Of a stretch of DNA of 64,000 bases, positions 29,082 to 55,808 are shown one piece after another. Each line of letters starts with the position of its first letter. Positions within the stretch are counted from its first letter, which is position 1. Both the position numbers and the translations under genes were made by a program. The notes beneath the pieces were generated by a model that did no database searches, had not been told where the DNA came from, and was given only the letters and a program-made list of their open reading frames with translations. This stretch comes from a virus. Lineage: Duplodnaviria; Heunggongvirae; Uroviricota; Caudoviricetes. The DNA lies in IMG/VR virus record IMGVR_UViG_2690316068_000002. The stretch is one strand, 5' to 3'.

Positions 29082-30311
29082 TCAAACATCCCCGTTCTTA
29101 ATCCACTGCCTGACTTGCTCGTCTTGTGCGACTTCTTTCTCATGTTTGGCAATATACAAGTCTGGCAATAGGGGTGGAGCGAATTCAGGCTCTGTCGCAC
29201 GCCACTTTTCATATGCGTCACGCATGGATTTCTCAACATTCCAATGCTCCAACTCTTGGTATTCAATCGGCCAGTTATCCTGCAATCTCTTCACTGCATT
29301 AGCCAGGTCGTATCGGAAGTAAGGATTAAGACCAATGAAATTACCAGCCAGCATGTCATCAACCTCCTTCACTCTGGCAATCTTAGAAAACTTACCAATA
29401 GCAATGTTGAGGTCCCAATCTGACACGAACAACAAAAGTGCTGCAAATGCCAGAAACTTAGCTTCCCCGTATGCTCTGTCGCTAACCGTTTTTGTCTGAA
29501 ACTCAATGTAATTGCCCATCACAAAACTAGTAAGCTTATAGGTCTTACTTATCTCGTCCTCCAAATGCGATGGATCGAGAATTGTGCGGTCACGATTATT
29601 GTTTATGTGTTCTAAGATTACAGCAATGTCTCTATGTGAGACTGAAATTTCACGCAATTGCTGGAGAGTCTTGATGTGAACTCTTAGCACCTCTTTGTCA
29701 ATCGCACGCTTCCAAGAAAAACCAGGCACAGTAACCTGAATGGGCGCGAAAGGTAGAATATCAGGAGTTGTCCATGCTAGATATGCATCACGTAACCCAC
29801 TAATATAATAAAGCCAGTCTAAATGCTCGCTTTCTAACCATATTTCAAATGTGGAATCCTTTCGCTTATTGAAGAACCATTCCCTCATCTGCCACATTTT
29901 TTCTTGAGTAAATATCCCTTCCTGTATGCCGGCACAGACCAGCTTTCGTATTACCTGCGAATACTTTGTTCGATCTTTTGTGAATGAGACAAGGTGCTGC
30001 TTCACCTCAGATGTTAGTCTATCTCCATAGAAATCACATGATGGATGATGGCCTTGACCATCTTCACCGGTAAATCTGAAATGCGCCTTCTTGTGATAGC
30101 CACCATTCCTAGTGGCTCTAACGAACGAACCACCTCCAACTTTGCAAATGGGGCAGATGATATCGTCACGGGCAATAGCATGAACCGAGCTGTCATCTAA
30201 ATTCTTTAGCGCCAAGTACTGCTCAGGATCGACTTCTTTTTGTAACGATTTTGAAAAAGCGGTATCAGTCATTCCAAGCTCCGAGCAAGGGGTTATTTGT
30301 TCAATTATCAT
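29082..30311 (-). CDS. Hypothetical protein with N-terminal Cys/His zinc-ribbon-like motif
   Basis: 409 aa; CPICK...(28 aa)...HHPSCDF cluster near N-terminus; no other recognisable domain. Confidence 0.55.
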   Translation of the reverse strand: MIIEQITPCSELGMTDTAFSKSLQKEVDPEQYLALKNLDDSSVHAIARDDIICPICKVGGGSFVRATRNGGYHKKAHFRFTGEDGQGHHPSCDFYGDRLTSEVKQHLVSFTKDRTKYSQVIRKLVCAGIQEGIFTQEKMWQMREWFFNKRKDSTFEIWLESEHLDWLYYISGLRDAYLAWTTPDILPFAPIQVTVPGFSWKRAIDKEVLRVHIKTLQQLREISVSHRDIAVILEHINNNRDRTILDPSHLEDEISKTYKLTSFVMGNYIEFQTKTVSDRAYGEAKFLAFAALLLFVSDWDLNIAIGKFSKIARVKEVDDMLAGNFIGLNPYFRYDLANAVKRLQDNWPIEYQELEHWNVEKSMRDAYEKWRATEPEFAPPLLPDLYIAKHEKEVAQDEQVRQWIKNGDV

Positions 30312-30442
30312 TCGGAATTATTTACTGTCTCGCCCAGTTTCACGTCATTTTATTCCCTAGTCTAGCTTTTCTAGGGTATACAGCTTATTACAAGCTCCTC
30401 ATTATTAACTGTTTCCGTAACTCATTGATCCGCTTATACACT

Positions 30443-30751
30443 CTACCAACACCAGCACTCAAGCCCTTCAACGATCGGCGCACCACAATCAAAATGTACA
30501 GAGTCAAAGCCTACATCAAGTACTTTCTGAATGTTAGCAATCGCGCCTTCGGATATACCATATCGACGCAAGTTGTCTTTCCAGACATCATCCTGTAACC
30601 CGGCGTGGACAATACAACCGCCGTCAATTTGTGAAACCCAATCCAGCTCATTGCTTGCGATCATGAACCGGCGAGCATCTTCCTCTGATGTATGAGATGA
30701 ACTGATCAATGCCACCTGGTAGGCTTGGGTAATGTTCAACATTTCAACCAC
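30443..30751 (-). CDS. Hypothetical protein
   Basis: 102 aa ORF; motif-1 copies in both orientations immediately upstream (30754-30825). Confidence 0.5.
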   Translation of the reverse strand: MVEMLNITQAYQVALISSSHTSEEDARRFMIASNELDWVSQIDGGCIVHAGLQDDVWKDNLRRYGISEGAIANIQKVLDVGFDSVHFDCGAPIVEGLECWCW

Positions 30752-30903
30752 TCCGAAACAATTTGTTTTCTTATGTGGCTTATTATCTCAATCAACAAAA
30801 GGTAGAAAACAAATTATTTTAGGGCTTGTGTAAATCAGGAGGGATTGTGTCTATATGAAAATGCCCAGCGTGTTGCCGGGCATTGTGAAGAATGGTTGTT
30901 TAG

Positions 30904-32937
30904 TTACTTAACTTGGTGGCCTGGTTTAGCACCAGCATCCGGGCTTAACAGGAAGATATCTTTTCCGCCAGGGCCAGCAGCCATCACCATGCCTTCAGAG
31001 ATACCGAAGCGCATTTTACGCGGAGCCAGGTTAGCCACCATAATTGTGTGACGACCAATCAGTGCCTGTGGGTCTGGATAAGCAGAACGGATGCCTGAGA
31101 AGACATTACGCTTTTCACCACCGAGATCCAGTGTCAGGCGCAACAGTTTGTCAGAACCTTCAACAAACTCCGCGTTTTCAATCAGCGCCACACGCAGGTC
31201 AACTTTGGCGAAGTCGTCAAAGGTGATGGTTTCCTGAATCGGGTCGTCAGCCAGTGGGCCAGTTACCGGTGCGGCTGTGGCTTTCACTTCTTCTTTGGAT
31301 GCTTCCACCAGTGCTTCCACCTGTTTCATATCGATACGGTTATACAGTGCCTTGAACGGATTCACTTTATGGCCCAGCAGCGGTTGCTGGATACCATCCC
31401 AGGTCAGTTCTGTATTCAGGAATGCTTCTGCACGTTCAGTCAGTTTCGGCAGTACCGGTTTCAGGTACGTCATCAGCACGCGGAACAGGTTAATGCCCAT
31501 AGAGCAAATCGCCTGCAGATCGGCATCGCGCCCTTCCTGCTTCGCCACCACCCACGGAGCCTGTTCATCGACATAGCGGTTAGCCAGGTCAGCCAATGCC
31601 ATGATTTCACGGATAGCTTTACCAAATTCGCGGCTTTCCCATGCTTCGCCAATCACTTCAGCGGCATCAGTAAAGGTTTTGTACAGTTGCGGGTCAGCCA
31701 GTTCGCTTGCCAGCACGCCGTCAAAACGCTTGTTGATAAAGCCTGCATTACGGGAGGCCAGGTTAACCACTTTGTTCACGATATCGGCATTCACGCGCTG
31801 AACGAAATCCTCCAGGTTGAGATCGATATCATCAATGCGCGAAGAGAGTTTCGCAGTGTAGTAGTAACGCAGGCTGTCGGCGTCAAAATGATTCAGCCAG
31901 GTGCTGGCTTTAATAAAGGTGCCGCGAGACTTGGACATCTTCGCGCCGTTCACCGTCACATAGCCATGAACAAACAGGTTGGTCGGCTTGCGGAAGTTGC
32001 TGCCTTCCAGCATGGCAGGCCAGAACAGGCTGTGGAAGTAAACAATATCTTTACCGATGAAGTGGTACAGCTCGGCGGTGGAGTCTTTCTTCCAGTATTC
32101 ATCGAAGCTGGTGGTATCGCCGCGCTTGTCGCACAGATTCTTGAAGGAACCCATGTAGCCAATCGGCGCGTCCAGCCAGACGTAGAAATATTTGCCCGGC
32201 GCGTTCGGAATTTCAAAACCGAAGTAAGGCGCATCTCGGGAGATATCCCACTGTTGCAGGCCGGATTCAAACCATTCCTGCATTTTGTTCGCCACCTGCT
32301 CCTGCAACGCGCCGCTGCGGGTCCATGCCTGCAACATTTCGCTGAAAGAAGGCAGATCAAAGAAGAAGTGTTCGGAATCACGCATTACCGGGGTAGCGCC
32401 AGAAACCACCGATTTCGGCTCGATCAATTCAGTCGGGCTATATGTTGCGCCGCAGACTTCACAGTTATCGCCGTATTGATCTGGCGCTTTACATTTCGGG
32501 CAGGTGCCTTTTACAAAACGATCCGGCAGGAACATGCCTTTTTCCGGGTCGTACAACTGAGAGATAGTGCGGTTTTTAATAAAACCGTTCTCTTTCAGGC
32601 GAGTATAGATAAGCTCAGACAACTGACGGTTCTCTTCGCTGTGCGTCGAGTGATAGTTGTCATAGCTGATGTTAAAGCCTGCGAAATCAGTCTGGTGTTC
32701 CTGACTCATTTCGCCAATCATCTGCTCCGGTGTGATACCAAGCTGCTGTGCTTTCAGCATGATCGGCGTACCGTGGGCATCGTCGGCACAGATGAAATTA
32801 ACCTCGTGGCCGCGCATTCGCTGGTAACGAACCCAGACATCAGCCTGGATGTGCTCCAGCATATGGCCGAGGTGGATTGAGCCGTTAGCGTACGGCAGCG
32901 CGCACGTCACCAGAATTTTCTTCGCGACTTGGGTCAT
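30904..32937 (-). CDS. metG: Methionyl-tRNA synthetase
   Basis: 677-aa product from [29 protein letters not shown] (HIGH motif), KMSKS motif, C-terminal tRNA-binding domain; near-identical to enterobacterial MetG from memory. ORF-track upstream extension (to 33066) rejected. Confidence 0.95.
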
Positions 32938-33094
32938 AGTAGGCATTACTTCTTTGTAGTGAAAAGGGGCTTGATAGTAACAAAATGGCCTTATGTCTGC
33001 CATGTGATAACAGCATTTCTCATAAATGATTAAATGTCGTAGCTGGAGTACACTACAAGGCGACAATTGCGCAAATTAAAATAAAGGAGACGGG

Positions 33095-34195
33095 ATGAGC
33101 GAGTCCAAATCGCCGGATGCCCTGAGAGCAATGGTAGCCGGTACGCTGGCTAATTTTCAGCACCCAACCCTGAAACACAACCTGACTACGCTTAAAGCGT
33201 TACACCATGTTGCGTTGATGGATGACACACTGCATGTCGAACTAATCATGCCTTTCGTGTGGAATAAGCCTTTTGAAGACCTGAAAGAGCAATGTAATGG
33301 TGATCTGCTCCGTATCACTGGCGCAAAGGCTATTGACTGGAAGCTGTCGTACAACATTGCCACGCTTAAGCGCGTCAAAAACCAACCAGGTATTAATGGC
33401 GTTAAGAACATTATCGCCGTCAGCTCAGGCAAGGGCGGCGTGGGTAAATCCTCCACGGCGGTAAACCTGGCACTGGCGTTGGCTGCTGAAGGTGCGAAAG
33501 TTGGTATTTTGGATGCCGATATCTATGGTCCATCAATTCCAACCATGCTGGGCGCGGAAAACCAACGTCCAACCTCACCTGACGGTACTCACATGGCACC
33601 TATCATGTCTCATGGCCTGGCAACCAACTCTATTGGTTATCTGGTCACCGACGACAATGCAATGGTGTGGCGTGGACCGATGGCCAGCAAGGCGCTGATG
33701 CAGATGTTGCAGGAAACTCTATGGCCTGATCTGGACTATCTCGTTCTCGATATGCCGCCGGGCACTGGTGATATTCAGTTGACGCTGGCGCAGAACATTC
33801 CTGTAACTGGTGCGGTTGTGGTAACTACGCCGCAAGACATCGCGCTGATCGATGCGAAGAAAGGCATTGTGATGTTCGAAAAAGTCGAAGTGCCGGTACT
33901 GGGTATCGTCGAAAACATGAGTGTGCATATTTGCAGTAACTGCGGTCATCACGAGCCAATTTTTGGCACCGGTGGCGCACAGAAACTGGCCGAGAAATAC
34001 AACACGCAGTTGTTAGGCCAAATGCCACTTCATATCTCTCTTCGTGAAGATCTGGATAACGGAACACCAACCGTTATTAGTCGTCCAGATAGCGAATTTA
34101 CGGCTATTTATCGTGACCTCGCAGATCGCGTTGCTGCCCAAATGTATTGGCAAGGTGAAGTAATACCTGGCGAAATCGCATTCCGCGCAGTGTGA
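33095..34195 (+). CDS. apbC: Fe-S cluster carrier ATPase ApbC/Mrp
   Basis: 366 aa; P-loop SSGKGGVGKSS, CxxC motif (CSNCGHH), divergent from metG as in enterobacterial chromosomes. Confidence 0.9.
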   Translation: MSESKSPDALRAMVAGTLANFQHPTLKHNLTTLKALHHVALMDDTLHVELIMPFVWNKPFEDLKEQCNGDLLRITGAKAIDWKLSYNIATLKRVKNQPGINGVKNIIAVSSGKGGVGKSSTAVNLALALAAEGAKVGILDADIYGPSIPTMLGAENQRPTSPDGTHMAPIMSHGLATNSIGYLVTDDNAMVWRGPMASKALMQMLQETLWPDLDYLVLDMPPGTGDIQLTLAQNIPVTGAVVVTTPQDIALIDAKKGIVMFEKVEVPVLGIVENMSVHICSNCGHHEPIFGTGGAQKLAEKYNTQLLGQMPLHISLREDLDNGTPTVISRPDSEFTAIYRDLADRVAAQMYWQGEVIPGEIAFRAV

Positions 34196-34232
34196 TAAAA
34201 AGGCGGTGCATTGCACCGCCTAATCAGTTCTC

Positions 34233-34622
34233 CTACATCACGGGACAATCATCAAACTCGCCACTTCTTGCGTCGTTGATAATGTGAGTGATCACACCAA
34301 ACACGGCATTGCTGCCCGTGCATCCATCGTCATCCTTTGGCAATGCTTCCTTCTTACCGGTTCTTAAATCCTCCAGATGCTGACGTGGATACTTCCGGTA
34401 TCTTTTTACGCGATATTCCCCATCCAGAGCGCATACAAGCAGAGAACCATCAACCGGGGTAAGTGAGGAATCGACCACCAGCAATGCACCCTGTAATATT
34501 CCCTCACGATGATGACTATCAGCTGCCCTCATGAAGTAGGTCGCTGAAGGATGTCTAATTATCTGCTGATCAAGAGAAATACGGCTCTCAGCATAATCCG
34601 CCGCAGGAGAAGGGAAGCCCAT
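34233..34622 (-). CDS. UmuD'-like S24 peptidase-family protein (N-terminally short relative to UmuD)
   Basis: 129 aa; begins MGFPSPAADY, i.e. at the position equivalent to the RecA-facilitated Cys24-Gly25 cleavage site of UmuD; Ser (ADSH) and Lys (RVKRY) positions conserved; C-terminal insertion relative to UmuD. Confidence 0.7.
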   Translation of the reverse strand: MGFPSPAADYAESRISLDQQIIRHPSATYFMRAADSHHREGILQGALLVVDSSLTPVDGSLLVCALDGEYRVKRYRKYPRQHLEDLRTGKKEALPKDDDGCTGSNAVFGVITHIINDARSGEFDDCPVM

Positions 34623-34638
34623 AATACTCGCCTCTTAA

Positions 34639-34658
34639 TACTGTATATACATACAGTA
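34639..34658. promoter_or_regulatory. LexA (SOS) box
   Basis: taCTGTatatacatACAGta, a perfect CTGT-N8-ACAG palindrome, 17 bp upstream of the UmuD'-like start codon and its AAGAGG Shine-Dalgarno. Confidence 0.75.
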
Positions 34659-35284
34659 TATGTTGAAGCTATATATTTTTGAACTCTATCTCTTAAAAAA
34701 GATGTTAATAAGATGCTAACTATTGAAAGGCATAAATATATACAATTCCAACAAACGTTATTTTTAACAAATTTTTTCTCTCTGTTGACTTTTGCGAAAG
34801 CCTTGTCTGGCCTAAATTGCGCGGAAGCTACTTTTTCCTTCCTGAGTTATCCACAGAGTTATGCACTTGCATGCATAACCTATACACACTATCTTAATTC
34901 GCAAGACACTGATGTTGCGGTATTGAAGGTTCATTGGGTTAAAAATAGACATTAAAAAGCCCAGTTGACTAGGCTGGGCTTTTTAAAAGGAAACAGAGTT
35001 TGCGGCTCTGTTCCTGAGCCATAAGTATCTGGCGACTGAATTAAGATTAACCGAATGTACTGGATTCATCAAGAAACGTTGAGTGGTCATACCAGGTAAT
35101 AATGACCATTTACTAAACATCGTTGTTCTCAAAGAAGATTTAAGTCCAGGTTTTTGGTGACTCTAAAACCTTACCTTAACTCGAAATCGTGCCGTAAGTA
35201 TCTGGCGACTACAGATATTGCAACTGCAAAGGCAAGCCCAAAGGTATTTGCAGCTAGGCGCGATAAAACTAAGTGAGGCCTGTT

Positions 35285-35368
35285 ATGGTTAACTTACTGT
35301 TCAAAATCGTGCCGCCGATGTTCGCGATTATCAAAGCGATCATTGAGTACGTAAACCAGCGTCCATAA
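35285..35368 (+). CDS. Candidate 27-aa hydrophobic peptide (MVNLLFKIVPPMFAIIKAIIEYVNQRP)
   Basis: Short ORF followed by a hairpin (ggccccatcaagagcatggggcc); lies in an intergenic block with 16-bp perfect direct repeats (taagtatctggcgact at 35023 and 35205). Confidence 0.25.
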   Translation: MVNLLFKIVPPMFAIIKAIIEYVNQRP

Positions 35369-35423
35369 CGCTAGTTGCTACAGGCCCCATCAAGAGCATG
35401 GGGCCTCTTTATCGTACTATTGC

Positions 35424-36050
35424 TTATTTTTTACGGACTGAGTTGTTCACTGCTCTGGCAATCTTCTCCCGCAATTGCTGCGTTCCGTGGTACTGAACCG
35501 CAATATCTCTCAACTCGTTCACCAGTTCTCGAATCTGGTGATCTTTAAGCTCATTATTTGGGTGATTGGTAACAACTCTGGTTAATTCACCCTTGTCTTT
35601 TGCTCTTACGTATGCAGCTCTTGTGCATTCGACCCATGTATTACCGCCTACATTAACTTCGTAGATTAGGCTGGACTTATCTGTCAATTCGGAACAAATA
35701 CGGGCCGTGGTCTGGCAACTAGAGCATTCGCAGTTATCGCGGAAACCGTGATCTACCGGTCGAGAAAGAGGTTTAACTTTTTCATCCAACTTCATCACAG
35801 CATCGTGATAAGCGTTCCAGCCGTCATCTTTACCAAGTTGATAAATCTCTGAAGGCTCCATGTAGTCTATATCGCAACCTTCTTCATCCGATCTATCTGG
35901 TCGCTTCCCTGGTAATCGCTCATAAAAACAATTTCTGTCTCGACGTTCGGCTCTCAGTGCTAACGCAAGAAGTTGCTCAAGCGAGGTATTTGCACCAGCA
36001 ATAATTTCATTGAGAATATCTTCTGTGAGATCTTTCGCTACCGTGCTCAT
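35424..36050 (-). CDS. Hypothetical protein
   Basis: 208 aa ORF, Cys-containing, no recognisable motif. Confidence 0.5.
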   Translation of the reverse strand: MSTVAKDLTEDILNEIIAGANTSLEQLLALALRAERRDRNCFYERLPGKRPDRSDEEGCDIDYMEPSEIYQLGKDDGWNAYHDAVMKLDEKVKPLSRPVDHGFRDNCECSSCQTTARICSELTDKSSLIYEVNVGGNTWVECTRAAYVRAKDKGELTRVVTNHPNNELKDHQIRELVNELRDIAVQYHGTQQLREKIARAVNNSVRKK

Positions 36051-36430
36051 TTATCTCTCTCAGTATGTTGCGATGGCGTAAATTTGACGACATCAAATAT
36101 TTTGGATGGCATCAACTTTATCCGCGAGCTTAGTTCGGCTCTTCTCTGTAATGCGGTTAATAATGTTTTCGTTCTGACGCCTTCGTGTATCCTCATCCCT
36201 GGCACAAGAACTACATCGCAGGGGAGATGCTCAGGTGACAAATCATTTTGGGCATCGCTAATCAGTCGTGTAATCTCTCTTTCAAGCCGACCGCCTAGCT
36301 CTGTTTTAGTGCAATGTTCTGACCAATCGCCAGCCTCAAGCAGCGCGAGAATGCTTAAAATATCGTCCAATAGATCAGTGGTATTATCGACTTCCTTCTG
36401 AAACTCACCGGCTACTGATTTATGCATCAT
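36047..36430 (-). CDS. Hypothetical protein
   Basis: 127 aa ORF with overlapping start/stop with neighbours. Confidence 0.45.
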   Translation of the reverse strand: MMHKSVAGEFQKEVDNTTDLLDDILSILALLEAGDWSEHCTKTELGGRLEREITRLISDAQNDLSPEHLPCDVVLVPGMRIHEGVRTKTLLTALQRRAELSSRIKLMPSKIFDVVKFTPSQHTERDK

Positions 36431-37080
36431 TCGTCATCCTCATCCGAGTCATCCTCATCAAAGGATGAGAGTAGTGGGTTAGTCATTCGCCCTACTTGAG
36501 TGGCGTAGCCACGCCGACAGAGATTGCGCAGCACACTGTATATTTCGAACATCTCGGTTCGTTCATCGCCAACATCAAGCTCAGATGCTATAGCGTGGCA
36601 TTCAGTCGCGAGAGCCGATATTTTCTGAAATAACTCTGCATTATTCACTGTTCGACTCCTGCGGCGTTCTGGTAGTGGCATCCAGTGTGTGACATTGCTA
36701 ATCAGACCATATTCATTAGTTTGAGGATGGTTGCCGTTATCGTCTCCGTATTTAAGACTCTCCATAAAGCCATAATGCCTATCACCATTAACGCTCACAA
36801 AGCCGTAATAAGCAGGTATAACGCCGATCTCACACGTAACCAGTAAAGGAAAACTAGTTCTCCAATTTAGCTCGCCAATTACAGGCATTCGCTCACTACA
36901 GCTTATCCAACCATCCTTAGATGCGGCTGTATTGGCATAGGCCTTACGGTGCTTCTGTAGCTCTGCTGCAATCGCTCTCACGACTTCAACTGGTGCCCTT
37001 GCAGCAAACTCAATGTTGGTGATCAGCTCATTAAGATATTTCTCGCTTGGGTAGCATTTCTTATTGTTAACGGTGGTCAT
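36427..37080 (-). CDS. Hypothetical protein, DUF551-like motif
   Basis: 217 aa; W..C.ERMP / HWMPLPE pattern typical of a phage domain of unknown function; acidic C-terminus. Confidence 0.45.
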   Translation of the reverse strand: MTTVNNKKCYPSEKYLNELITNIEFAARAPVEVVRAIAAELQKHRKAYANTAASKDGWISCSERMPVIGELNWRTSFPLLVTCEIGVIPAYYGFVSVNGDRHYGFMESLKYGDDNGNHPQTNEYGLISNVTHWMPLPERRRSRTVNNAELFQKISALATECHAIASELDVGDERTEMFEIYSVLRNLCRRGYATQVGRMTNPLLSSFDEDDSDEDDE

Positions 37081-37265
37081 TAGGCAGCTCTCTCAACAAC
37101 AAGCAATTCGTCGTAGTCATAATCAGTTTCGGAACCATCCGTACCGAACAGAGTCACTTTGTCATTTTCCATCCAAAAAGATTTAACCGCACATTGTTGA
37201 CCTTTAGATGTTATGAGCACATCACCAGGGATTACGTCTTCAGCGCGAACCTCTAGTGTTCTCAT
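37080..37265 (-). CDS. Hypothetical small protein
   Basis: 61 aa ORF tightly packed between neighbours. Confidence 0.35.
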   Translation of the reverse strand: MRTLEVRAEDVIPGDVLITSKGQQCAVKSFWMENDKVTLFGTDGSETDYDYDELLVVERAA

Positions 37266-37921
37266 CGTGCTGCCCCCTCTTTGGTGAAAATGCCTGCTGC
37301 AATGCTGTTTATGATGCTGTCAGTGCATGGAGTAGAAAGCTGGGCATCTCCAGCAATTTTCATGACCTCAACATCCGCATATCGAATACCGAGGTGTATC
37401 AGACCGGCTATACCTGACTTAAGTCGAACATTTTCCATAAACAGATCTTTTTCCCGCTGTTTAGCGGCTTCCAACTCCATCGACAATTTTTCCAACTGCT
37501 CTTTATGCTTCTTGTATTCCTGATACGCGTGCCAAGACTGACCTTTGCGCACACTATCAGCGATATCAGCAACCTGCTCTGGTGTTAGCGTGGTCAGTGG
37601 CTGTGATGGAAAAATCATCACTTGCCCGGCATCCCAATCAAAACCCGCCTGAATTGACTGAACCTCAACTGATGGTGTTGAACCGATGCGACCAGGCGAA
37701 TGAACAACGATCGTTACATCCATATCGCGACGATGGCTGTGGTTGTTGGACAAAATACGATTCACCAACTCAGAAAATTTGGATAATTTCATGCTGATCT
37801 CTCTTTCTCTCCCCGGATAATTCTGTTGCACACATCCACACACTCGTCGCAGATGAAAACGGCGTCCCCAGCAATTAACTTTTTGACGGCGTACTGGGAT
37901 TTGTTGCAGAAGCTGCAACAA
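37262..37921 (-). CDS. Hypothetical protein
   Basis: 219 aa ORF; C-terminal coiled-coil-like segment. Confidence 0.45.
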
Positions 37922-38112
37922 AGTGTTCGCCTGACTGATAAGGATGGAGCGCCAGATGTCAGCCGCTCCATATCGTTCTTGCGACGCAATATCACACGGC
38001 TGAACTCAACCAGTTTCTCCGGGGATATCTCCTCCTCCGTAGCGAGCGTCTCTAGTCGTTCGAGTATGTTGAAGGCTTTTTCTTGGGTAATAGCAGAGTG
38101 CGATGTGGTCAT
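37789..38112 (-). CDS. Small protein with ClpX-type C4 zinc-binding domain
   Basis: C-terminal [38 protein letters not shown] closely parallels the ClpX N-terminal zinc-binding domain ([37 protein letters not shown]); no AAA+ module. Confidence 0.6.
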
Positions 38113-38510
38113 TTTCTTTCACCTTCAATGTTCGTGGCGCTGGCAAGATTGTCCTTGCGAAGAAGAGCGGCTATGCGCTTACTTCCATCCGAGATAACGC
38201 CCTCGTAATACTCACGCTGCTCGTTGAGTTTTGATTTTGCCAACTCCAGTTGTTTTGTTAGTTCCGCAATACGGCAAACATCGTTGATACGCGTTTCCTC
38301 TAATGCGTTGATCTCATCCAGTAGTGCCAGCACGGTTTCTGGTCCGGCCAGAAATTTGAAGGCGTTGAGGGCATCAATATCAACACCGCTATCTTTAAGT
38401 TCCTGTTCGCATATCAGATCATCATCAACTGGCAACATTAACAGGCGTTCCATTGCCGGAATTGCACGCTCTGCCGCCTCACGCAGTGCCTGATAGTCAA
38501 TCTTGCTCAC
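38109..38510 (-). CDS. Hypothetical protein
   Basis: 133 aa acidic ORF. Confidence 0.45.
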
Positions 38511-39007
38511 TGGATGACTCCTTTACGAAGCTGTTCAGCAATACTTACGCATATCTCTGCGCCTCTAATCAGCCCCGGAACGTTCTTGTTTGGCCCAACT
38601 TCACCATCAACAAAATCAATCATCGCGTTACGAGCCATATCCACGCCCTGCGCACGTACTTCAGCCAGAAAAGCATCGGTGGCTGGAGTCTCCGTTAATT
38701 CGCTAACCCAATTATCTCCGTGTTCCTCGGCACACATCGCATCGAATGCTCGCTCAGATTCTTTCAGGGCTGCATTCTCCGCCGCTAATGCGTCTCTCTG
38801 CGCTCGCAACTTCTCAATTTCGGCAGCCATGTAGTAACCAACCATAGCGAAAGTGGCGAAAGGGTAGTCAGAATCATCAGGAGATACGGAGGCCATTAGC
38901 AGACCATCGTGCATGTTCTGGCTTCCATCAGTGATGGATACCGCATAAGAATCGCTGGTTTCCCGTTTATACAATACGACGACCGGGTTCTTGATTTTCT
39001 CTCTCAT
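38507..39007 (-). CDS. Hypothetical protein
   Basis: 166 aa ORF. Confidence 0.45.
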   Translation of the reverse strand: MREKIKNPVVVLYKRETSDSYAVSITDGSQNMHDGLLMASVSPDDSDYPFATFAMVGYYMAAEIEKLRAQRDALAAENAALKESERAFDAMCAEEHGDNWVSELTETPATDAFLAEVRAQGVDMARNAMIDFVDGEVGPNKNVPGLIRGAEICVSIAEQLRKGVIQ

Positions 39008-39561
39008 TACGATGCCTCTAACTTATCTAACTCTTTCAGCCCTTCACGTACCGCGTTCACAATGCGTTCCAGATACTGGTATTTCGGGTTTGGTACCGTT
39101 GGCCAGTCGGCATACCACGGATCATCACCAAAGAGATTCAGCAGTTTGTTACCGACGCCGAAACAACAGCAGCTTTCTTTTACGTCATCGGTGTTTTCCG
39201 CCTCGTCCCACATTTCACGAGCCAGTACGGCGTCGATTTCTCTCTCTCTTCGTAACTTTATGATTTCTGACTTCACGAAAAGCAGATTTGCATCGTTGTC
39301 ATCGTCGACCGTGCTTCGCAGTTGAGAGTCGAAATAGCCGATTAGATACTCGTTGCTGACCCGCTTAATGAACGTCTGCACATCATCACCGCCCATAGCA
39401 AACCAAGCCGCAGTCCACGCTTTTCCGTAGCAGATGATGGTGATTCTTCCCTTACCAGGTTCGTAGTTTTCAATCATCACTCGAACCGGATCGAGGCGTT
39501 CCAGATCCGTCAGCACAAAGGAAAGAACATCTATTTTTTCGACCTTCATGCAGCCTCCCAC
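39007..39561 (-). CDS. Hypothetical protein
   Basis: 184 aa ORF. Confidence 0.45.
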   Translation of the reverse strand: MGGCMKVEKIDVLSFVLTDLERLDPVRVMIENYEPGKGRITIICYGKAWTAAWFAMGGDDVQTFIKRVSNEYLIGYFDSQLRSTVDDDNDANLLFVKSEIIKLRREREIDAVLAREMWDEAENTDDVKESCCCFGVGNKLLNLFGDDPWYADWPTVPNPKYQYLERIVNAVREGLKELDKLEAS

Positions 39562-40187
39562 GCGCTCCAGATCAGCGATTTGTGTTTTTCATAACGTTTG
39601 ATGTGTACCGGTTTCAGAAGCGCAATACCTTCAGTGACTTTCGCCATTGCGCTTAATAGCAACGGGTGTTCTATACCTATCCTCTCCATGTACTCGACAA
39701 CATCAGCGTTGGCACCAATCTCTTTGCCGTGAAAGAGTACGTCCAGCATCAGTTCTTTCTCTGCGAGGTAGACAGCTGAAAACTCGGGATCGCGACTCAC
39801 GATAGAAGAGGTATTGTCGAGCAGGTCAGCCAGCTTGATCATGCGCGTCTGCATGTCGAGATTTTGCTCCAGCTCCCGGACATTGATGATGAAACGCTGT
39901 ATTCGATTGCCGTCTTCTGGCCTTGCAATGTTGGTCAGAGCCTGAACCATTTCAGCTACGCGCTCACCGAAGTGATCACGAACCATCTCTATGGTTACAT
40001 GGGTGTCTTCGACCACATCATGCAGAAGCGCCGCGATTTGCATCTCCACGGTTCCGTCATGCAATGCAACAATCTCTCGGACAGCAACCGGGTGGTTGAT
40101 GTAGTCTTCGCCGGTATATTTTCTTTTCTGACCAACGCCACCATGAGCGCCAGCGGCGAACATATGAGCTTCGGAAATACTAGACAT
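39546..40187 (-). CDS. HD-domain phosphohydrolase, SpoT/Mesh1-type small alarmone hydrolase-like
   Basis: 213 aa; INHPVAVREIV...AALLHDVVEDT matches the (p)ppGpp-hydrolase HD motif of SpoT/RelA; no synthetase domain. Confidence 0.7.
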   Translation of the reverse strand: MSSISEAHMFAAGAHGGVGQKRKYTGEDYINHPVAVREIVALHDGTVEMQIAALLHDVVEDTHVTIEMVRDHFGERVAEMVQALTNIARPEDGNRIQRFIINVRELEQNLDMQTRMIKLADLLDNTSSIVSRDPEFSAVYLAEKELMLDVLFHGKEIGANADVVEYMERIGIEHPLLLSAMAKVTEGIALLKPVHIKRYEKHKSLIWSAWEAA

Positions 40188-40306
40188 TCTTAACTCCGTT
40201 GTTTTCTAGTTGTGGTTATTTTCACAAATAAGAAAAGGTAGAAAACAATTTATTTAAGGCCACAACTTATGGCCTTTATTTATTCATGCCGAAGGATTTG
40301 TAGCGT

Positions 40307-43138: not shown

Positions 43139-43241
43139 AATTGCACCATTAAGAAGTGATTTGTTTAATGGTGCAATTATTTCAAAAATGAAAAGGTACT
43201 AAATAGAAATAAACAGGCAATCCTTCAAATAAAGGCATTGG

Positions 43242-43913
43242 CTAATCATACTTGGAGGTATTTATCACCAGAATTTTGTTTGTATAAATCTTCTTAATAT
43301 CCCATGTGACATTACCGGAATACCATTGACCGTTATATACTTGGTTTCCAGTTGCACCTGTCATTGTTACATAGACAGGTCTGTCGTAATCGGTTCGTCT
43401 ATAGTTATATACCCCAACCATAGCAGGCATTACCGCACATGGATACCCCATATCTATTGTAAATTGAGGGTCAGAAATAGTGATAAGTTTCGCATCAAGG
43501 GGCATCATCTCACCGTGATACACCATTGCGCCTGCGCTGTTATACATGGCAATGCCATAGCCAGAATGTGGTAACACCATATCAGAAAAAGCATAAACTG
43601 TTATTGTTCCGGGGCTACCATTTACCTGATGCAATCTGAGAGCATTGTATCCGTTACTATGCTCATGAATAAACATCATGTTCGCCTTATTACTGCTTTT
43701 TATGAAGAAAAAGCATGATTTGTTTGATGGGATTGATGTTTGAAAAACAGAACCTTTAGATGTAGACATTGTCCCTTTATTAATCAGATTTTGCGGAGTA
43801 AATTCTGGACTCATCCACAAACTTCCATCTGATTGAGTAATTGACATCCCGAACATAATTATCCCCAGTATGTGTATATGTAAGAACCAAGCCCCGTATA
43901 TAAATTTGACCAA
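43242..43913 (-). CDS. Hypothetical protein (AT-rich island)
   Basis: 223 aa ORF in low-GC DNA; overlaps the next ORF in another frame. Confidence 0.4.
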   Translation of the reverse strand: MVKFIYGAWFLHIHILGIIMFGMSITQSDGSLWMSPEFTPQNLINKGTMSTSKGSVFQTSIPSNKSCFFFIKSSNKANMMFIHEHSNGYNALRLHQVNGSPGTITVYAFSDMVLPHSGYGIAMYNSAGAMVYHGEMMPLDAKLITISDPQFTIDMGYPCAVMPAMVGVYNYRRTDYDRPVYVTMTGATGNQVYNGQWYSGNVTWDIKKIYTNKILVINTSKYD

Positions 43914-44140
43914 CTAACCGTATTTCCATTAATAGTAACTGTTGGAACAGGTAAATTAATGTAGTTGTCGTTGTTAAGAGGCATCAATGACCACACGGCA
44001 TGTAGCGATTTACCCGGTGGCGGATTGGAGTACGTCTTAGAGCCTGATGACGCAGTAAATCGATCAAGAAAAAAAATAGGAGTAAGGAAGCCAGTAACGT
44101 TAATTCCTTTATTGTTGTAAATCCCTGTACCGTATGCCAT
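43859..44140 (-). CDS. Hypothetical protein (AT-rich island)
   Basis: 93 aa ORF; 55-nt out-of-frame overlap with 43242-43913. Confidence 0.35.
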   Translation of the reverse strand: MAYGTGIYNNKGINVTGFLTPIFFLDRFTASSGSKTYSNPPPGKSLHAVWSLMPLNNDNYINLPVPTVTINGNTVSWSNLYTGLGSYIYTYWG

Positions 44141-44195
44141 TTTTCATCCTTGTTTTTTATCAACACAATATGGCCGATCATGCGGCCATATCAGA

Positions 44196-44765
44196 TCAAT
44201 TAGAGCTTTGAAAGGCTTTGTGTGGCTGTGTTGCGAGGTTATGTCGATGGCTTAACTCACGCATCATGTCTTCAAGCCGACTCTTTGTGTCGTCGAGTTG
44301 GTCGGCCATTGCTCCCAAAAGCTGACGAACGGCCATCGGATCATCGCTGTTTAGTGATGGCATTTTATAACCCGCCTGAGAAGACATAAGATTGAACGCA
44401 GACATCAACATCGTTAGAGAGGATGTAAGCCCAGCAATTTCACGATCTTTGCTGGCAATAATCGCCTCACTCTTGTTAGTGTCATCAGTTCGTTGAGTCT
44501 CGCTCACCATATCCAAAGTCGCCTGCAACTTATCAGCGCGCTCTTTTTCAGCAAGATAATGAACACCGAAATGATGTGCTAAAGCTACAACCTGAGTTGG
44601 CTCTTCAAAGGTGGACTCAAAATTAAGTGCTGTAACCACTCTCTCAAATATGGAAACGTCTTCTATTCCTCGAAGAATGGCTAACATTTTGACCAGTTCA
44701 TTAGCATCCATTTCTTCGAATAAGGCGTTTTGTTCATCAGCTATCGCTTTGCATTTCTTGCACAT
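44196..44765 (-). CDS. Hypothetical protein
   Basis: 189 aa ORF; motif-1 upstream (44781-44820). Confidence 0.5.
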   Translation of the reverse strand: MCKKCKAIADEQNALFEEMDANELVKMLAILRGIEDVSIFERVVTALNFESTFEEPTQVVALAHHFGVHYLAEKERADKLQATLDMVSETQRTDDTNKSEAIIASKDREIAGLTSSLTMLMSAFNLMSSQAGYKMPSLNSDDPMAVRQLLGAMADQLDDTKSRLEDMMRELSHRHNLATQPHKAFQSSN

Positions 44766-50812: not shown

Positions 50813-51457
50813 CTAATGAACGGTTACTCGGCCACAGAACCGGTTTTCTATCTTTTCTACAGCGTTATCTAGCATTCTCATCACTGATCTGGCTCTTGCT
50901 TCAACCGTGCGATATCGGTTGGAAACGACGAAGGTTTGCAGATCTCCCCTTTGCGGATGCAGGTGAATTTTTGTCAGTTCCCCGCACATCAACGCATCAA
51001 TACGAGCGACATACAGACGGTCTAATGATGCTCGTTGTGATCGCAAGTAATCTCGCTCTGAGAGAGCGACCCCCGGGCGTAGGCCAGCAATGGCGTTAAA
51101 GTTTGAAATAGCAGTTTTGTGGCAAAACTTTTCGATATCGAGGGCTAACTCAATACACCGATCTTCATTTGTATGGCCAACCAAATCCAACGTGTAGGCC
51201 ATAACATCAGCAGGTGTGCGATCGATAACAAAGCCTTCAACACCACGTGTAAGTAGCTCTATATGCTTTGCTATTTCCATTTGAATCTGAAGCCGCTCAT
51301 ATAGAGGCATAGACTCACCTACTCGAACACCGAGGCGGCTCATCAAACTTCCGACACCAGCATCCACGTAAGGGATTCCGTAATGTTTGTCGATATATTT
51401 AGCCAGGGTTGTTTTCCCACTGCCCTGAGCACCAGTGATCCCAATCCGGTAATCCAT
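50813..51457 (-). CDS. P-loop nucleotide kinase (dNMP/nucleoside kinase-like)
   Basis: 214 aa; Walker A GAQGSGKTT at N-terminus; sits in the nucleotide-metabolism cluster. Confidence 0.55.
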   Translation of the reverse strand: MDYRIGITGAQGSGKTTLAKYIDKHYGIPYVDAGVGSLMSRLGVRVGESMPLYERLQIQMEIAKHIELLTRGVEGFVIDRTPADVMAYTLDLVGHTNEDRCIELALDIEKFCHKTAISNFNAIAGLRPGVALSERDYLRSQRASLDRLYVARIDALMCGELTKIHLHPQRGDLQTFVVSNRYRTVEARARSVMRMLDNAVEKIENRFCGRVTVH

Positions 51458-51933
51458 TACGACCTTCTGTATACGATCTGCGAAAAGCCAGGCTCTTCCT
51501 CGCTGGCTCGTTGGGTATAAGCTGTTTCAACAGGCACAAAGCCTAAGTTACGCATCATGCTTGCCGGGAAGAATGCATCGGCGTTTGGTACATCAACGCC
51601 GATGTGGGAGAGCCAAATCTCTTCAACATGCGGCATGAATAGCGAGTAAATTTGTTCCCCGCCAATCACCCACACAGGCTCTGGTAATCGCAACACATCA
51701 TCCACACCAGCAGGGTAGAATCCATTTGGTACAAAGCCATGAGAGCGCGTCAAAACGAGGTTATGACGCTCTGGAAGAGGGCGTTTGAGACTTTCCATCG
51801 TTTTACGCCCCATAACGACAGTGGCGTTTTTGGTGAGTCTCTTAAATAGCTTCAGATCGGTAGAACAACGCCAGGGCAGTTCGTTCGCTATGCCGATCTC
51901 ATAGTTACGGCCAACAGCAGCGATCATCTTCAT
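51457..51933 (-). CDS. Dihydrofolate reductase
   Basis: 158 aa; colinear with FolA (IAAVGRN..IG....PW, VVMGRKT, WVIGG..IY). Confidence 0.8.
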   Translation of the reverse strand: MKMIAAVGRNYEIGIANELPWRCSTDLKLFKRLTKNATVVMGRKTMESLKRPLPERHNLVLTRSHGFVPNGFYPAGVDDVLRLPEPVWVIGGEQIYSLFMPHVEEIWLSHIGVDVPNADAFFPASMMRNLGFVPVETAYTQRASEEEPGFSQIVYRRS

Positions 51934-52343
51934 TTGCTCACCTCATAGATGACCGGTCGATGGTGAGAGTCGGCTAAAGCGGCACGGAGTCGAGGATCGT
52001 GCACCAGCGCAGCGATAAGCAGATCGCCTTTATGCTCCGCTAATGTGCGCTTAATATGCTTCTCATAACTGGTGCCATTCGGTACGAGATGAAGCCAGTC
52101 ATAATCAACGCCAAAATCTTTCAGCCATCGTTTAGTTGGCGCTTCAAGAGTTTCAGAGCGGCTACTGATAAGCACCACTTCAGCCCCTGAGCGAGCAAAA
52201 CCACGCAACATACGGCTGGTGGGGAAAATGAGTTCATCACCGGCAATGAGCTGGCCTGCATCCGCGTCAGATACTGATTTACGATGGCTGGCATTTGCCA
52301 GCACACCTTCAATTTCGCATAAGACATACATACCTCTTGCCAT
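51930..52343 (-). CDS. Hypothetical protein
   Basis: ORF-track start (52391) overlaps thymidylate synthase by 47 nt; internal Met (MARGMYVLC) is used here. Confidence 0.4.
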   Translation of the reverse strand: MARGMYVLCEIEGVLANASHRKSVSDADAGQLIAGDELIFPTSRMLRGFARSGAEVVLISSRSETLEAPTKRWLKDFGVDYDWLHLVPNGTSYEKHIKRTLAEHKGDLLIAALVHDPRLRAALADSHHRPVIYEVSK

Positions 52344-52344
52344 A

Positions 52345-53448
52345 TCACACCGCCACTGGAACCTTGATCCACGGTAGAGGGTCATAGCCAAGAATTAAAA
52401 CCTCGTCCCATTTGAAATCATCCAACTCTGACCATTCATGAGGGAAAATAACGACCGGATCTGAATGCTCTGGAGCCTGTCGTTTCATTAGCTCACACAC
52501 ACCTTCCATGTGGTTGTTGTACAAATGCACGTCAAAGCCAAAATGCACAAATGCACCGGCCATGTGACCCGTAATCTTCGCGAGAAAATGAGTGAGAATG
52601 CCATAGCCAGCAATATTGAATGGCATACCAACAAAAGTGTCTACGCTACGCTGTACGAGGCAGGAGTTGAGGATGCGTTTGGGGATTCCAAGTTCATCCA
52701 GTTCAGCTTCAGTAACACTGCCGTCCATCTCCAGATCGTATAGCATCTTGGTGTAGATAGACTCGTAACCGAGGCGACTGTGTTGAAGACCAATGTCAGT
52801 TGCCATCGTTAAACGGGTTTCAAAATCCAGCTCACGACTCCACAAAGAGAAGACAAAGTGGCAAGGTGGCAGTTTCATATCCTCAAGCTCGCCTACGTTC
52901 CATGCGTTAAGCATGATGCGACGATCGGTAGGGTTCGTGCGCAGTGTATCGACAATACGCTGTAGCTGATCGATTTCACGGGACAGCACTACGCGATCTT
53001 CACTGATACCCAGGTATCCCTCGACTTTGTACCCGCGTTCACGGAAAGTAGCGATCTTGCTCAGATATTCACTATGGCTCACGATGCGGGTATCTTCCCA
53101 TCGACGCCACTGCTTACCGTAAACCGGCCCCAAATCGCCATTCTCATCGGCCCATGCATCCCAAATCTTAACGCCGTTATCCTTGAGAAATTGGATGTTG
53201 CCCGTGCCTTTCAGATACCACTCAAGTTCGACAAGTAGTGGCTTAAGATTTACCGCCTTTCCAGAAATAAGCGGCACAGTCCCACCAGTAAGCATGTAGT
53301 AAGAGGGAACGTAGCAGGTGCTTAAAGTGCCAGTGCCTGTGCGATCATCAGCCTGCACGCCGCTTTTAAGCACCGTCTCAATAACTTTTGCATACGATGC
53401 GTTTGTTACCTGACCGTTCGTATGCTCTCGATTCAAAAGGAGTGACAC
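52345..53448 (-). CDS. Thymidylate synthase family protein (ThyA-like, with insertions)
   Basis: DRTGTGT, YGKQWRRW, catalytic LPPCH, and QRS.D...G.PFNIA.Y motifs; larger than canonical ThyA, so a pyrimidine hydroxymethylase cannot be excluded. Confidence 0.75.
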   Translation of the reverse strand: MSLLLNREHTNGQVTNASYAKVIETVLKSGVQADDRTGTGTLSTCYVPSYYMLTGGTVPLISGKAVNLKPLLVELEWYLKGTGNIQFLKDNGVKIWDAWADENGDLGPVYGKQWRRWEDTRIVSHSEYLSKIATFRERGYKVEGYLGISEDRVVLSREIDQLQRIVDTLRTNPTDRRIMLNAWNVGELEDMKLPPCHFVFSLWSRELDFETRLTMATDIGLQHSRLGYESIYTKMLYDLEMDGSVTEAELDELGIPKRILNSCLVQRSVDTFVGMPFNIAGYGILTHFLAKITGHMAGAFVHFGFDVHLYNNHMEGVCELMKRQAPEHSDPVVIFPHEWSELDDFKWDEVLILGYDPLPWIKVPVAV

Positions 53449-53618
53449 AAAAACCTCACAAAGATAAGTAATTACTTATTCATCGTGTGAGTTTACATTC
53501 ATTGAGAGAACAAGACCAGACAGATAAAAAAATGGTGGCCATAGGCCACCAAAACGAATAGTCATTCCAGAGTTTTATTACGCATGTTAAATATACACAG
53601 ATAGATAACTACCTACAA

Positions 53619-54488
53619 TTATTTTTTGATCATTCCGTACATTGCTGAGGCTTTAGCTTGCTCAACAAAGGAGGATAAATCGACATCACTATAGGTTGGA
53701 GACTTCAGAATCTTTCCATCGGAAATTCGAAAACCGATCATCTTATCGGTGCCATCAGCATGGCGGAATCCCAGATCTGAAGAGTCGTATTTGCAGTTGG
53801 CCACAGCCTGGCGACGTTCCTCAACATCAGCAGGCCATAATTTTGTCATGTTAGACCGATGAATTTCGCCAACCAGCTCGACGACATTGATACCGAGGAA
53901 ATCAGCCAGTCGATAAGTCATCATGCACGCCACATAGATTTTGTTCATTACACGGCGCAGTTCCTGAATCAGCTCAGAATCCTTAACAGTCTTCTTCTCA
54001 AGTTTATCTGCCAGCTCTTCGAGCATACATGACGCCTCACGAGCTTCCTGAAATGGCATTGCCATATCATCGAAAACAGTGTTACCGGGCACAAAAATTG
54101 TCTGCATAAAGCGATCAATGCTCTGTTCCTGCGTGTAATAGGTCATGCCGGTAGAAATACCACCTTTGATGGAGACCATCGTACCAACACCAACGTATAA
54201 AAAGTCGGCCATTGCATCCAGCAGTTGCTCAATATCCCCATTCATTGCGGCTGGAATACCTTCCACTACAGCTTCTTCATGAATCAGGCTTGCACGGAGA
54301 CGAAGCAGCTCTGGTGTCGGCATAACGCGTCTCGGATGCTGGAAGAGTTCATGAAACTGATCGACCATCTTGTAAATACTTTCAGTGGCTACACCATGGC
54401 CTTCATGCAACTCATATGGTTCTGGCTTAAATCCAATGAGTCGATCGGTGGCAAGTTTCAGGTGGTCAGTCAGTTTGGTAAAGTTCAT
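53619..54488 (-). CDS. Putative nucleotide pyrophosphohydrolase (MazG-like), tentative
   Basis: Helical protein with EE..E...D acidic pattern (ASLIHEEAVVEGIPAAMNGDIEQLLDAMAD); start set at the Met preceded by an RBS, not the longer ORF-track start at 54686. Confidence 0.35.
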   Translation of the reverse strand: MNFTKLTDHLKLATDRLIGFKPEPYELHEGHGVATESIYKMVDQFHELFQHPRRVMPTPELLRLRASLIHEEAVVEGIPAAMNGDIEQLLDAMADFLYVGVGTMVSIKGGISTGMTYYTQEQSIDRFMQTIFVPGNTVFDDMAMPFQEAREASCMLEELADKLEKKTVKDSELIQELRRVMNKIYVACMMTYRLADFLGINVVELVGEIHRSNMTKLWPADVEERRQAVANCKYDSSDLGFRHADGTDKMIGFRISDGKILKSPTYSDVDLSSFVEQAKASAMYGMIKK

Positions 54489-54565
54489 GCTAGTTTTGTT
54501 CCTTCTTAATTCTTGTGATCCATTGTGGCCCAGCGTTGCCAGGCCACATAATGCTTTGTATCGGT

Positions 54566-55708
54566 TTACAGGTCTGCAAACTGGCTTAGAGAAGCCTTGT
54601 CCACGGTAGAATCGATCTGACCTACCAGATATGTGCTTTGCTCTGCCTCTTGTGGTGCAATTTGCAGTGTGTCGGTTAACAACCACTTGTTCATCCAGAC
54701 CAGCGGATCAGTGGTAACTTCTGGAAATAAAGCCTTCAGGCCAAGACGATTCATAGCCAGATTGGTTCGGTATTTTACATAGGTCTTCAGAATATCCGCG
54801 TTTAAACCAATCATCGAACCGTCTTTGAAGAGATAGTCTGCCCAGTTCATTTCTTGTTCGGCGACTGATTTCATGGTGTCGTAAATGACGTTTTCTTCAT
54901 CAGCAGCAATCTCTTTCCACAATAAACCTTCGCGACCGGTACGCATGAAGCGGATCATGCGTTCAGTTCCTTCGCAATGCAGAGCTTCATCACGGGCAAT
55001 AAAGCGCATAATTTTGGTGTTACCCTCAAGCAACTTCCGTTCGCCAAAGGCAAACGTACATGCAAAACTTACATAGAAACGGATCGCCTCAAGCGCATTA
55101 ATGGACACTAACGTGCGGAAAAGCTGACGGTGCAAAGGATATGGCTCCCAGCCATATTCATTTACGTACAGACGCTCAAATTCCTTCTCGCCTAACGACT
55201 GGCGATCGCAGGTCATCCCATAAAGCCTGTCATATTCAGCAGAGATACTGATGGCTCGGTTGATGATTTCTTCATCCGTAACAATACCGTCAAAAACAAT
55301 ACTCGGATCGTCCACCATGCCACGAATAATGTGGGTGTAGCTGCGGCTATGGATAGTCTCAGAGAAAGACCACGTTTCAACCCACGTTTCCAGTTCAGGA
55401 ATAGAGATAAGCGGCAGCAGAGTTGCGTTTGGGCTACGTCCCTGAACTGAATCGAGCAACGTTTGATAACGGAGATTACTCAGGAAAATGTGGCGTTCGT
55501 GGTCCCGCAGCTTCGTATTGAAGTCGATGCGATCGCTCGAAATATCAACTTCTTCCGGCCGCCAGAAGAAAGACAATTGACGTTCAATCAACTTTTCAAA
55601 ATCACGGTATTTTTGTTGATCGTAACGAGCCACGTTGACAGATTGTCCGAGGAACATAGGCTCTTTGGTTGCATCATTAGCACCCAAACGGAACGTTGAA
55701 TATGACAT
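54566..55708 (-). CDS. nrdB: Ribonucleotide reductase class Ia small subunit
   Basis: 380 aa, colinear with E. coli NrdB ([29 protein letters not shown], di-iron ligand region [12 protein letters not shown]); motif-1 upstream (55736-55760). Confidence 0.9.
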
Positions 55709-55808
55709 GTGTTTTTCCTTTTTTGATGTGTTTAAACAAGTTGTTATCTTATGTGTTTAAACAAGGCTTACAAATCAAAGATAAGGTGGGGATATACCCC
55801 ACCATATG

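Follow-up and report, generated by a model that had tools for sequence, protein, structure and literature searches.

The 64,000-nucleotide stretch of viral DNA analysed here, which we refer to as the window, carries a short gene for an S24-family protein that resembles the activated form of UmuD, UmuD′, and that is preceded by a LexA-type palindrome. The question this locus raises is whether the gene is a working SOS mutagenesis factor and, if so, with which polymerase its product would act. An earlier note, made from the sequence alone, had proposed a LexA-controlled, pre-truncated UmuD′-like protein of a mobile element that lacks its cognate umuC. This proposal was borne out: the product belongs to a curated HumD equivalog family, shares 91.5% amino acid identity with HumD of phage P1 and has UmuD′ as its best PDB match. 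The gene is an orthologue of P1 humD, already named, characterised and annotated in public databases. Very probably, it is a LexA-repressed copy of humD on an SSU5-like phage-plasmid that supplies ready-made UmuD′ to act with the UmuC of the host.

The product begins at the UmuD cleavage site

Translation of the humD open reading frame (Table 1) gives a protein that begins MGFPSPAADYAESRISLDQQ (over a longer stretch, MGFPSPAADYAESRISLDQQIIRHPSATYFMRAADSHHREGILQG). In HMMER alignments, residue 2 of this protein falls opposite position 25 of PDB 8gmt_B, a full-length UmuD, and opposite the first residue of UmuD′ (1umu_A). A MAFFT alignment with MG1655 UmuD gave the same register, with Gly2 corresponding to UmuD Gly25, in agreement with the start at the G25 equivalent that had been proposed in the note. 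Five codons 5′ of the ATG there is an in-frame TAA (the upstream translation reads ...YIQY-stop-EASI-M), and therefore a longer form of the product is impossible. The DNA in which an N-terminal arm would need to be encoded is filled by the LexA box. Because of the stop, the arm with its Cys/Ala-Gly cleavage site, the mark of an autoproteolytic UmuD, cannot be encoded at this locus. The predicted product is Met followed by the UmuD′ equivalent from Gly25, with the N-terminal arm absent.

Table 1 Features of the humD locus (positions in the window)
Feature	Position	Strand	Details and basis
humD coding sequence	34233..34622	minus	129 aa + stop, ATG start; open reading frame, family profile, P1 homology
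C-terminal tail	34233-34262	minus	last 10 codons of humD; family alignment
Catalytic motif region, AADSHHR	34506-34526	minus	humD codons 33-39; motif here A-DSHH
Shine-Dalgarno-like AAGAGG	34631..34636	minus	8 nt upstream of ATG; read from sequence
LexA operator (SOS box) TACTGTATATACATACAGTA	34639..34658	none	palindromic, 1 mismatch to consensus; predicted
Promoter-like site	34655..34683	minus	-35 TTCAAA, 17-nt spacer, -10 TATACT; consensus scan
GC-rich hairpin + T-run	34201..34221	minus	9 pairs, 7 GC; terminator scan

The protein belongs to the HumD family

Profile searches, which the note had suggested as a check, placed the protein within the S24 peptidases (Pfam PF00717, Peptidase_S24, 1.6e-9) and, more narrowly, in an NCBIfam equivalog, "HumD family translesion DNA polymerase" (NF051876; 219.8 bits, with the cutoff at 120; residues 1–129 on profile positions 1–129 of 129). 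The NCBIfam UmuD subfamily model NF007621 scored 87 bits, below its cutoff of 110. PHROG 811, "UmuD-like protein", matched at 2.7e-54, and the best PDB sequence match was UmuD′ 1umu (E 6.7e-23). The LexA model TIGR00498 gave 27.2 bits against a cutoff of 110.95 in a match limited to the C-terminal domain. An assignment as LexA or as a CI-type phage repressor was rejected, as the protein has only 129 residues and no N-terminal winged-helix or HTH domain.

Phage homologues were sought by tblastn against phage genomes. The protein is 100% identical to one from Escherichia phage Cyrano, 91.5–92.2% identical to HumD of P1 and P7 (with P1 at 91.5%), 90.7% to the phage D6 homologue, 71% to phiKO2 gp23, 68% to N15 gp26 and 64–66% to the HK140, HK639 and Enterobacter phage homologues. 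A protein database search returned 561 clusters at E<=1e-5; 106 of the best 120 of these start MGFPSP, and most are 126–130 residues long. Some longer homologues start "MYIQYL...", which looks like gene callers having started inside the LexA box. Copies at >=99% identity are present in 149 PLSDB plasmids. PGAP labels copies of the gene either HumD family or "S24 family peptidase", and RefSeq WP_001404347.1, which differs by one residue, carries the PGAP name "HumD family translesion DNA polymerase". The P1 RefSeq record notes that humD "functionally complements E. coli UmuD'". McLenigan et al. 1999 (J Bacteriol 181:7005) call P1 HumD, in their title, a homologue of UmuD′ that is functional and facilitates SOS mutagenesis.

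Structure prediction, a second check put forward in the note, pointed the same way. The AF2 model, built from a shallow alignment of 46 sequences, is of moderate quality (mean pLDDT 66, pTM 0.54), with a core at pLDDT 74–81 and values <50 for the N-terminal 25 residues and for the last 9 residues, that is, the C-terminal tail. Foldseek searches with this moderate model found the best PDB fold matches for its core in 1umu, 8gmt, 1ay9 and 1i4v (UmuD′/UmuD; E 2e-6 to 9e-6), with a probability of 1.00 and target-normalised TM scores of 0.65–0.70 for 1umu, 8gmt and 1ay9. UmuD′/UmuD ranked ahead of the C-domains of LexA and lambda CI. The model was good enough to rank UmuD′ first and is uninformative on the tail.

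Comparison with known systems

The closest counterpart is HumD of P1 (humD, P1_gp103). Both proteins have 129 residues, the same start (MGFPSPAADY) and an identical end region; both genes have a LexA operator just upstream (19 nt from the start in P1, 16 nt here) and no cognate umuC, and both are carried by phages that live as plasmids. The carriers differ, being P1-like in one case and SSU5-like in the other, as do the neighbours: lxr and hot, upstream of humD in P1, and phd-doc, downstream of it, are absent here, where humD is instead convergent with a captured apbC-metG segment. The operator spacer sequences also differ (TATGTATA here and TATAAATGA in P1).

E. coli UmuD′ (UmuD 25–139; 1UMU, 1AY9, 1I4V) shares the fold and the N-terminal boundary of the protein, the Ser and Lys equivalents and the SOS regulation, which here is predicted. 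Whereas UmuD′ arises by RecA-stimulated self-cleavage, the form encoded here would be made directly, without the N-terminal 24 residues. The two are only about 37–39% identical, and HumD differs by a short insertion ahead of the final strand, a 10-residue C-terminal extension and a degenerate GDSM motif. In addition, umuD lies in an operon with umuC, while the gene here stands alone. MucA, ImpA, SamA and RumA, encoded on plasmids or ICEs, are likewise S24 mutagenesis subunits of mobile elements and are 38–44% identical over residues 2–120. Unlike the protein studied here, they are full-length, must self-cleave and are encoded in operons with a UmuC homologue. They also lack the HumD tail, as the alignments end at query residue 119–120.

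N15 gp26, phiKO2 gp23, HK639 UmuD and HK140 gp28 are members of the same family at 64–71% identity, with a MGFPSP or VGFPSP start. These genes have a LexA box upstream, as here, but their neighbours differ; the phiKO2 operator is common to a divergent dinI, and in HK140 an ORF of 79 residues lies between operator and gene. This ORF of the lambdoid phage HK140 (gp27, locus coordinates 1262-1501) ends at the start codon of the pre-truncated UmuD′-like gene, overlapping it. In the IncX3 plasmid pMTC948 there is also a 79-residue ORF (locus coordinates 2759-2998), which ends 2 nt before the start of a pre-truncated UmuD′-like gene. Neither ORF has a Pfam match. An identity of 36% between the two (E 5e-15) points to a two-gene module that has been conserved. 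The window does not contain this ORF.

A near-consensus LexA box precedes the gene

Upstream of humD, the 20-mer TACTGTATATACATACAGTA agrees with the LexA consensus TACTGTATATATATACAGTA at 19/20 positions. It is the sole match to this consensus in the 64-kb window at <=3 mismatches, and no such match arose in 100 shuffles. The CTGT-N8-ACAG box that the note had placed 17 bp upstream of the gene was confirmed as the 16-mer core of this operator (34641-34656). The distance required correction: the ATG lies 18 nt from the 16-mer and 16 nt from the 20-mer. By itself, the bare CTGT-N8-ACAG pattern is not significantly enriched, with 3 occurrences in the window against 1.02 expected. The other two (26895 and 29922) have GC-rich spacers, are far from the 20-mer consensus and were taken as chance matches.

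The remaining signals around the gene are listed in Table 1. The -10 element of the putative promoter overlaps the edge of the LexA operator. The promoter scan across the window was by itself indistinguishable from chance, with 2 sites found against 2.3 expected in shuffles, and the meaning of the putative promoter lies in its position relative to the operator and humD. The GC-rich hairpin is located just past the humD stop codon, between the convergent humD and apbC genes.

LexA boxes also precede the gene in other phages. In P1, the RefSeq record marks a LexA binding site at the matching position, TACTGTATAAATGAACAGTA, 19 nt before the humD start. LexA boxes were also found 14 nt upstream of the homologue in N15, 17 nt upstream in both HK639 and Enterobacter phage vB_Ecl_MII_003, 44 nt upstream in phiKO2, where the site is annotated as a LexA site common to the divergent dinI, and 262 nt upstream in HK140, before the 79-residue ORF that overlaps the humD start. 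Near-consensus boxes are therefore present at 7/7 loci examined (the window and six other phages), in flanks that are otherwise unrelated. These data provide comparative support for a predicted SOS regulation of the humD family.

The upstream region contains further features. An AT-rich stretch of 800 bp (window 34660-35423) has no annotated gene, and Rfam models, run over the entire window with gathering thresholds, matched no RNA family in this stretch or elsewhere. Positions 34748-34871 are 75% identical to the upfN/upfO/late-promoter LPhot region of P1, which is annotated in P1 with DnaA boxes, and a perfect DnaA box, TTATCCACA, is located at 34847-34855. A hairpin terminator lies in the same stretch, at 34958-34975. 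In P1, hot and lxr are situated between the LPhot-region segment and humD; here they are missing.

The carrier is an SSU5-like phage-plasmid without umuC

The window is collinear, at 96–99% identity, with E. coli plasmids of 108–112 kb, for example the complete NZ_CP115378.1. The annotation of these plasmids by PGAP lists tail, capsid, portal and terminase genes as well as RepB and ParB, and they also encode dnaE, a 3′-5′ exonuclease, recA, a primase, a helicase, nrdAB, thyA and dfrA51. Among phages, these plasmids match Cyrano and CMS-2020a, and SSU5 of Salmonella in part. Because the related plasmids combine phage and plasmid genes and match these phages, the window belongs to the SSU5-like phage-plasmids of E. 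coli, and humD is an accessory gene on the element. In 89 complete E. coli genomes, a single place covers >=80% of window positions 30000–38000, the segment that includes humD.

Next to the gene lie the convergent apbC and small ORFs for which no domain match was obtained, and, as the note had stated, no umuC is adjacent. Its suggestion that a partner be sought elsewhere on the element also gave a negative result. A tblastn search with E. coli UmuC yielded no homologue, its best E values being 9.9 for the window and 1.6 for the related plasmid NZ_CP115378.1. Neither the PGAP annotation of NZ_CP115378.1 over its full length nor Pfam scans of ten ORFs of the window, of which seven exceed 350 residues, include a Y-family polymerase; the remaining large ORFs of the window fall in the collinear part annotated by PGAP. 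The host, by contrast with the element, almost always supplies the gene: umuC is present in 5423/5426 complete E. coli genomes, and a partner would therefore be available in essentially every case, as for P1. The likely partner of HumD, by analogy, is host UmuC.

Other searches of the locus and its surroundings gave the following results. The P1 neighbours Lxr and Hot were absent from the window by tblastn, and PADLOC defence-system profiles had no match for HumD or for the two upstream ORFs. The divergent genes metG (methionine-tRNA ligase) and apbC (Fe-S cluster carrier), at 30904-34195, are arranged as on enterobacterial chromosomes. The metG-apbC segment was probably captured from another enterobacterium, since the 8-kb query reaches no more than 80–90% identity with the majority of E. 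coli records. A nucleotide-metabolism cluster on the minus strand (51457-58124), recognised by way of the annotated collinear plasmid, comprises dfrA51, which encodes a trimethoprim-resistant dihydrofolate reductase, a thymidylate synthase gene, nrdB and nrdA; the occurrence of dfrA51 in phage-plasmids is already published. An ORF of 409 residues (29082-30311, minus strand) has no Pfam domain and is annotated as hypothetical in the related plasmid. Positions 37478-40212 and 43204-44216 are not common to NZ_CP115378.1 and form a variable region of small ORFs, and related phages annotate Ea22-like, Eae-like and DUF551 proteins in the matching variable regions. A preprint on phage-plasmids in clinical Enterobacteriaceae, SSU5-like elements included, makes no mention of UmuD, HumD, LexA, SOS, methionine or apbC.

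A conserved tail and a degenerate catalytic motif set the family apart

The features of the family were counted in 101 aligned HumD-family members. All of them extend beyond the UmuD C-terminus by a 10-residue tail, [SNT]-G-E-F-D-D-C-P-V-M, of which seven positions (E, F, D, D, C, P and V) are >92% conserved. Alignments to UmuD, ImpA and SamA end before this tail, which is better conserved in the family than the catalytic serine. We take the tail to resemble the acidic-hydrophobic C-terminal tip of SSB, DFDDDIPF. HumD proteins might then be more than simple UmuD′ mimics and might be brought by the tail to a partner in the replisome or among SSB clients, for which the DnaE or RecA encoded by the phage-plasmid would be candidates; we consider this unlikely. 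If true, docking by the tail would give phages a damage-inducible, UmuC-independent way to redirect replication. The function of the conserved tail is the only possibly unexplored point on the HumD family.

A broader form of this idea is that HumD is chiefly a modulator of replication and the SOS response, acting on host Pol III, as the umuD products of the host reportedly do, or on the DnaE-type polymerase of the element, and slowing or re-routing element replication once damage has occurred, with the tail as its dock. The gene content of the relatives, which encode their own dnaE, 3′-5′ exonuclease, recA, nrdAB and thyA, is in line with such a role, as is the proximity of P1 humD to hot, a homologue of Pol III theta. 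A paper on P1 Ref cites work on umuD products that disrupt the Pol III alpha-beta complex. The tail, with its seven conserved positions and its absence from UmuD, is of low confidence in the AF2 model, as expected for a partner-dependent motif. Nevertheless, the sole activity of the family with experimental support, according to the P1 record note and the paper title, is complementation of UmuD′. A modulating role would also be compatible with cooperation with host UmuC and not exclusive of it; as the chief function of HumD we regard it as decidedly improbable.

Of the catalytic residues, this copy keeps the equivalents of UmuD Ser60 (S36) and Lys97 (K73). Across the 101 aligned sequences, Lys is 98% conserved at the Lys97 position, and the Ser60 position is Ser in 55%, Thr in 43% and Ala in 2%. 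The GDSM of UmuD gives way in the family to x-[ST]-H-[FYH]-R-E-G, which is shorter by one residue; the position before the Ser is hypervariable, and an invariant Arg follows the degenerate motif. Because the nucleophile varies, GDSM is degenerate and the pre-Ser position is hypervariable, the alignment suggests relaxed selection on catalysis, with proteolysis no longer selected in the HumD family. This pattern bears on the possibility that HumD is an active Ser-Lys protease in trans, with host UmuD, LexA or a phage repressor as conceivable substrates, and that this activity replaces or accompanies its mimicry of UmuD′. The retention of S36 and K73 here and of the Lys across the family would suit such an enzyme, but the exchange of its nucleophile, the loss of GDSM with a one-residue deletion and the hypervariable pre-Ser position are what relaxed constraint on catalysis would produce, and make a trans protease very improbable indeed.

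The gene is under purifying selection

This copy and P1 humD are 85.6% identical in nucleotides and 91.5% in amino acids, with dS 0.77, dN 0.042 and dN/dS 0.055. The stretch homologous to P1 at the nucleotide level (84%; window 34234-34658) starts with the LexA box and goes no further than the stop codon. Given a dN/dS of 0.055, the gene is not a remnant, and the fallback reading of the note, an S24 remnant, was abandoned. A decaying, 5′-truncated umuD with a chance palindrome before it, as might be imagined from the isolation of the gene from any umuC and its position beside the captured chromosomal genes metG and apbC, within an accessory region that differs from one relative to the next, is scarcely credible in view of this ratio over a dS of 0.77, the like length and start of most of the best 120 homologues, the match to a curated equivalog family, an operator with a chance expectation of zero that is kept in seven phages, and the presence of both a ribosome-binding site and a terminator.

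Discussion

The data presented here favour a humD orthologue that would act as a ready-made UmuD′. P1 HumD reportedly dimerises and binds UmuC and RecA filaments. By analogy with P1 HumD and with the biology of UmuD′ and Pol V, repression by LexA in vivo, dimerisation and binding to UmuC and RecA would be expected of the protein encoded here, and the following model can be proposed.

In the absence of damage, a host LexA dimer on the operator would keep humD off, because the operator overlaps the -10 element and sits 16 nt from the ATG. Upon DNA damage, RecA filaments would trigger the self-cleavage of LexA, and humD would be transcribed. Its product would be made directly in the activated form, as Met, the equivalent of UmuD 25–139 and the family-specific 10-residue tail. 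As the product would already be in the UmuD′ form, the slow RecA-dependent self-cleavage would be skipped, and HumD would be an active cofactor once translated. HumD would then dimerise and pair with chromosomal UmuC and RecA to form a polymerase V-like translesion complex, and this complex would raise damage tolerance and mutagenesis for the cell and for the resident phage-plasmid. The relatives of the element encode their own RecA and DnaE, so that HumD might here have other partners in vivo than it has in P1. To our knowledge, the benefit of HumD to a phage has never been established.

The model requires no new concept. Its implication is that SSU5-like phage-plasmids, which in relatives of the element studied here spread resistance genes such as CTX-M-15 and dfrA51, also carry a pre-activated accessory subunit of Pol V under predicted LexA control. 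With umuC present in nearly all E. coli hosts, practically any of them could have its SOS mutagenesis increased by this subunit, a point that bears on antibiotic-induced mutagenesis.
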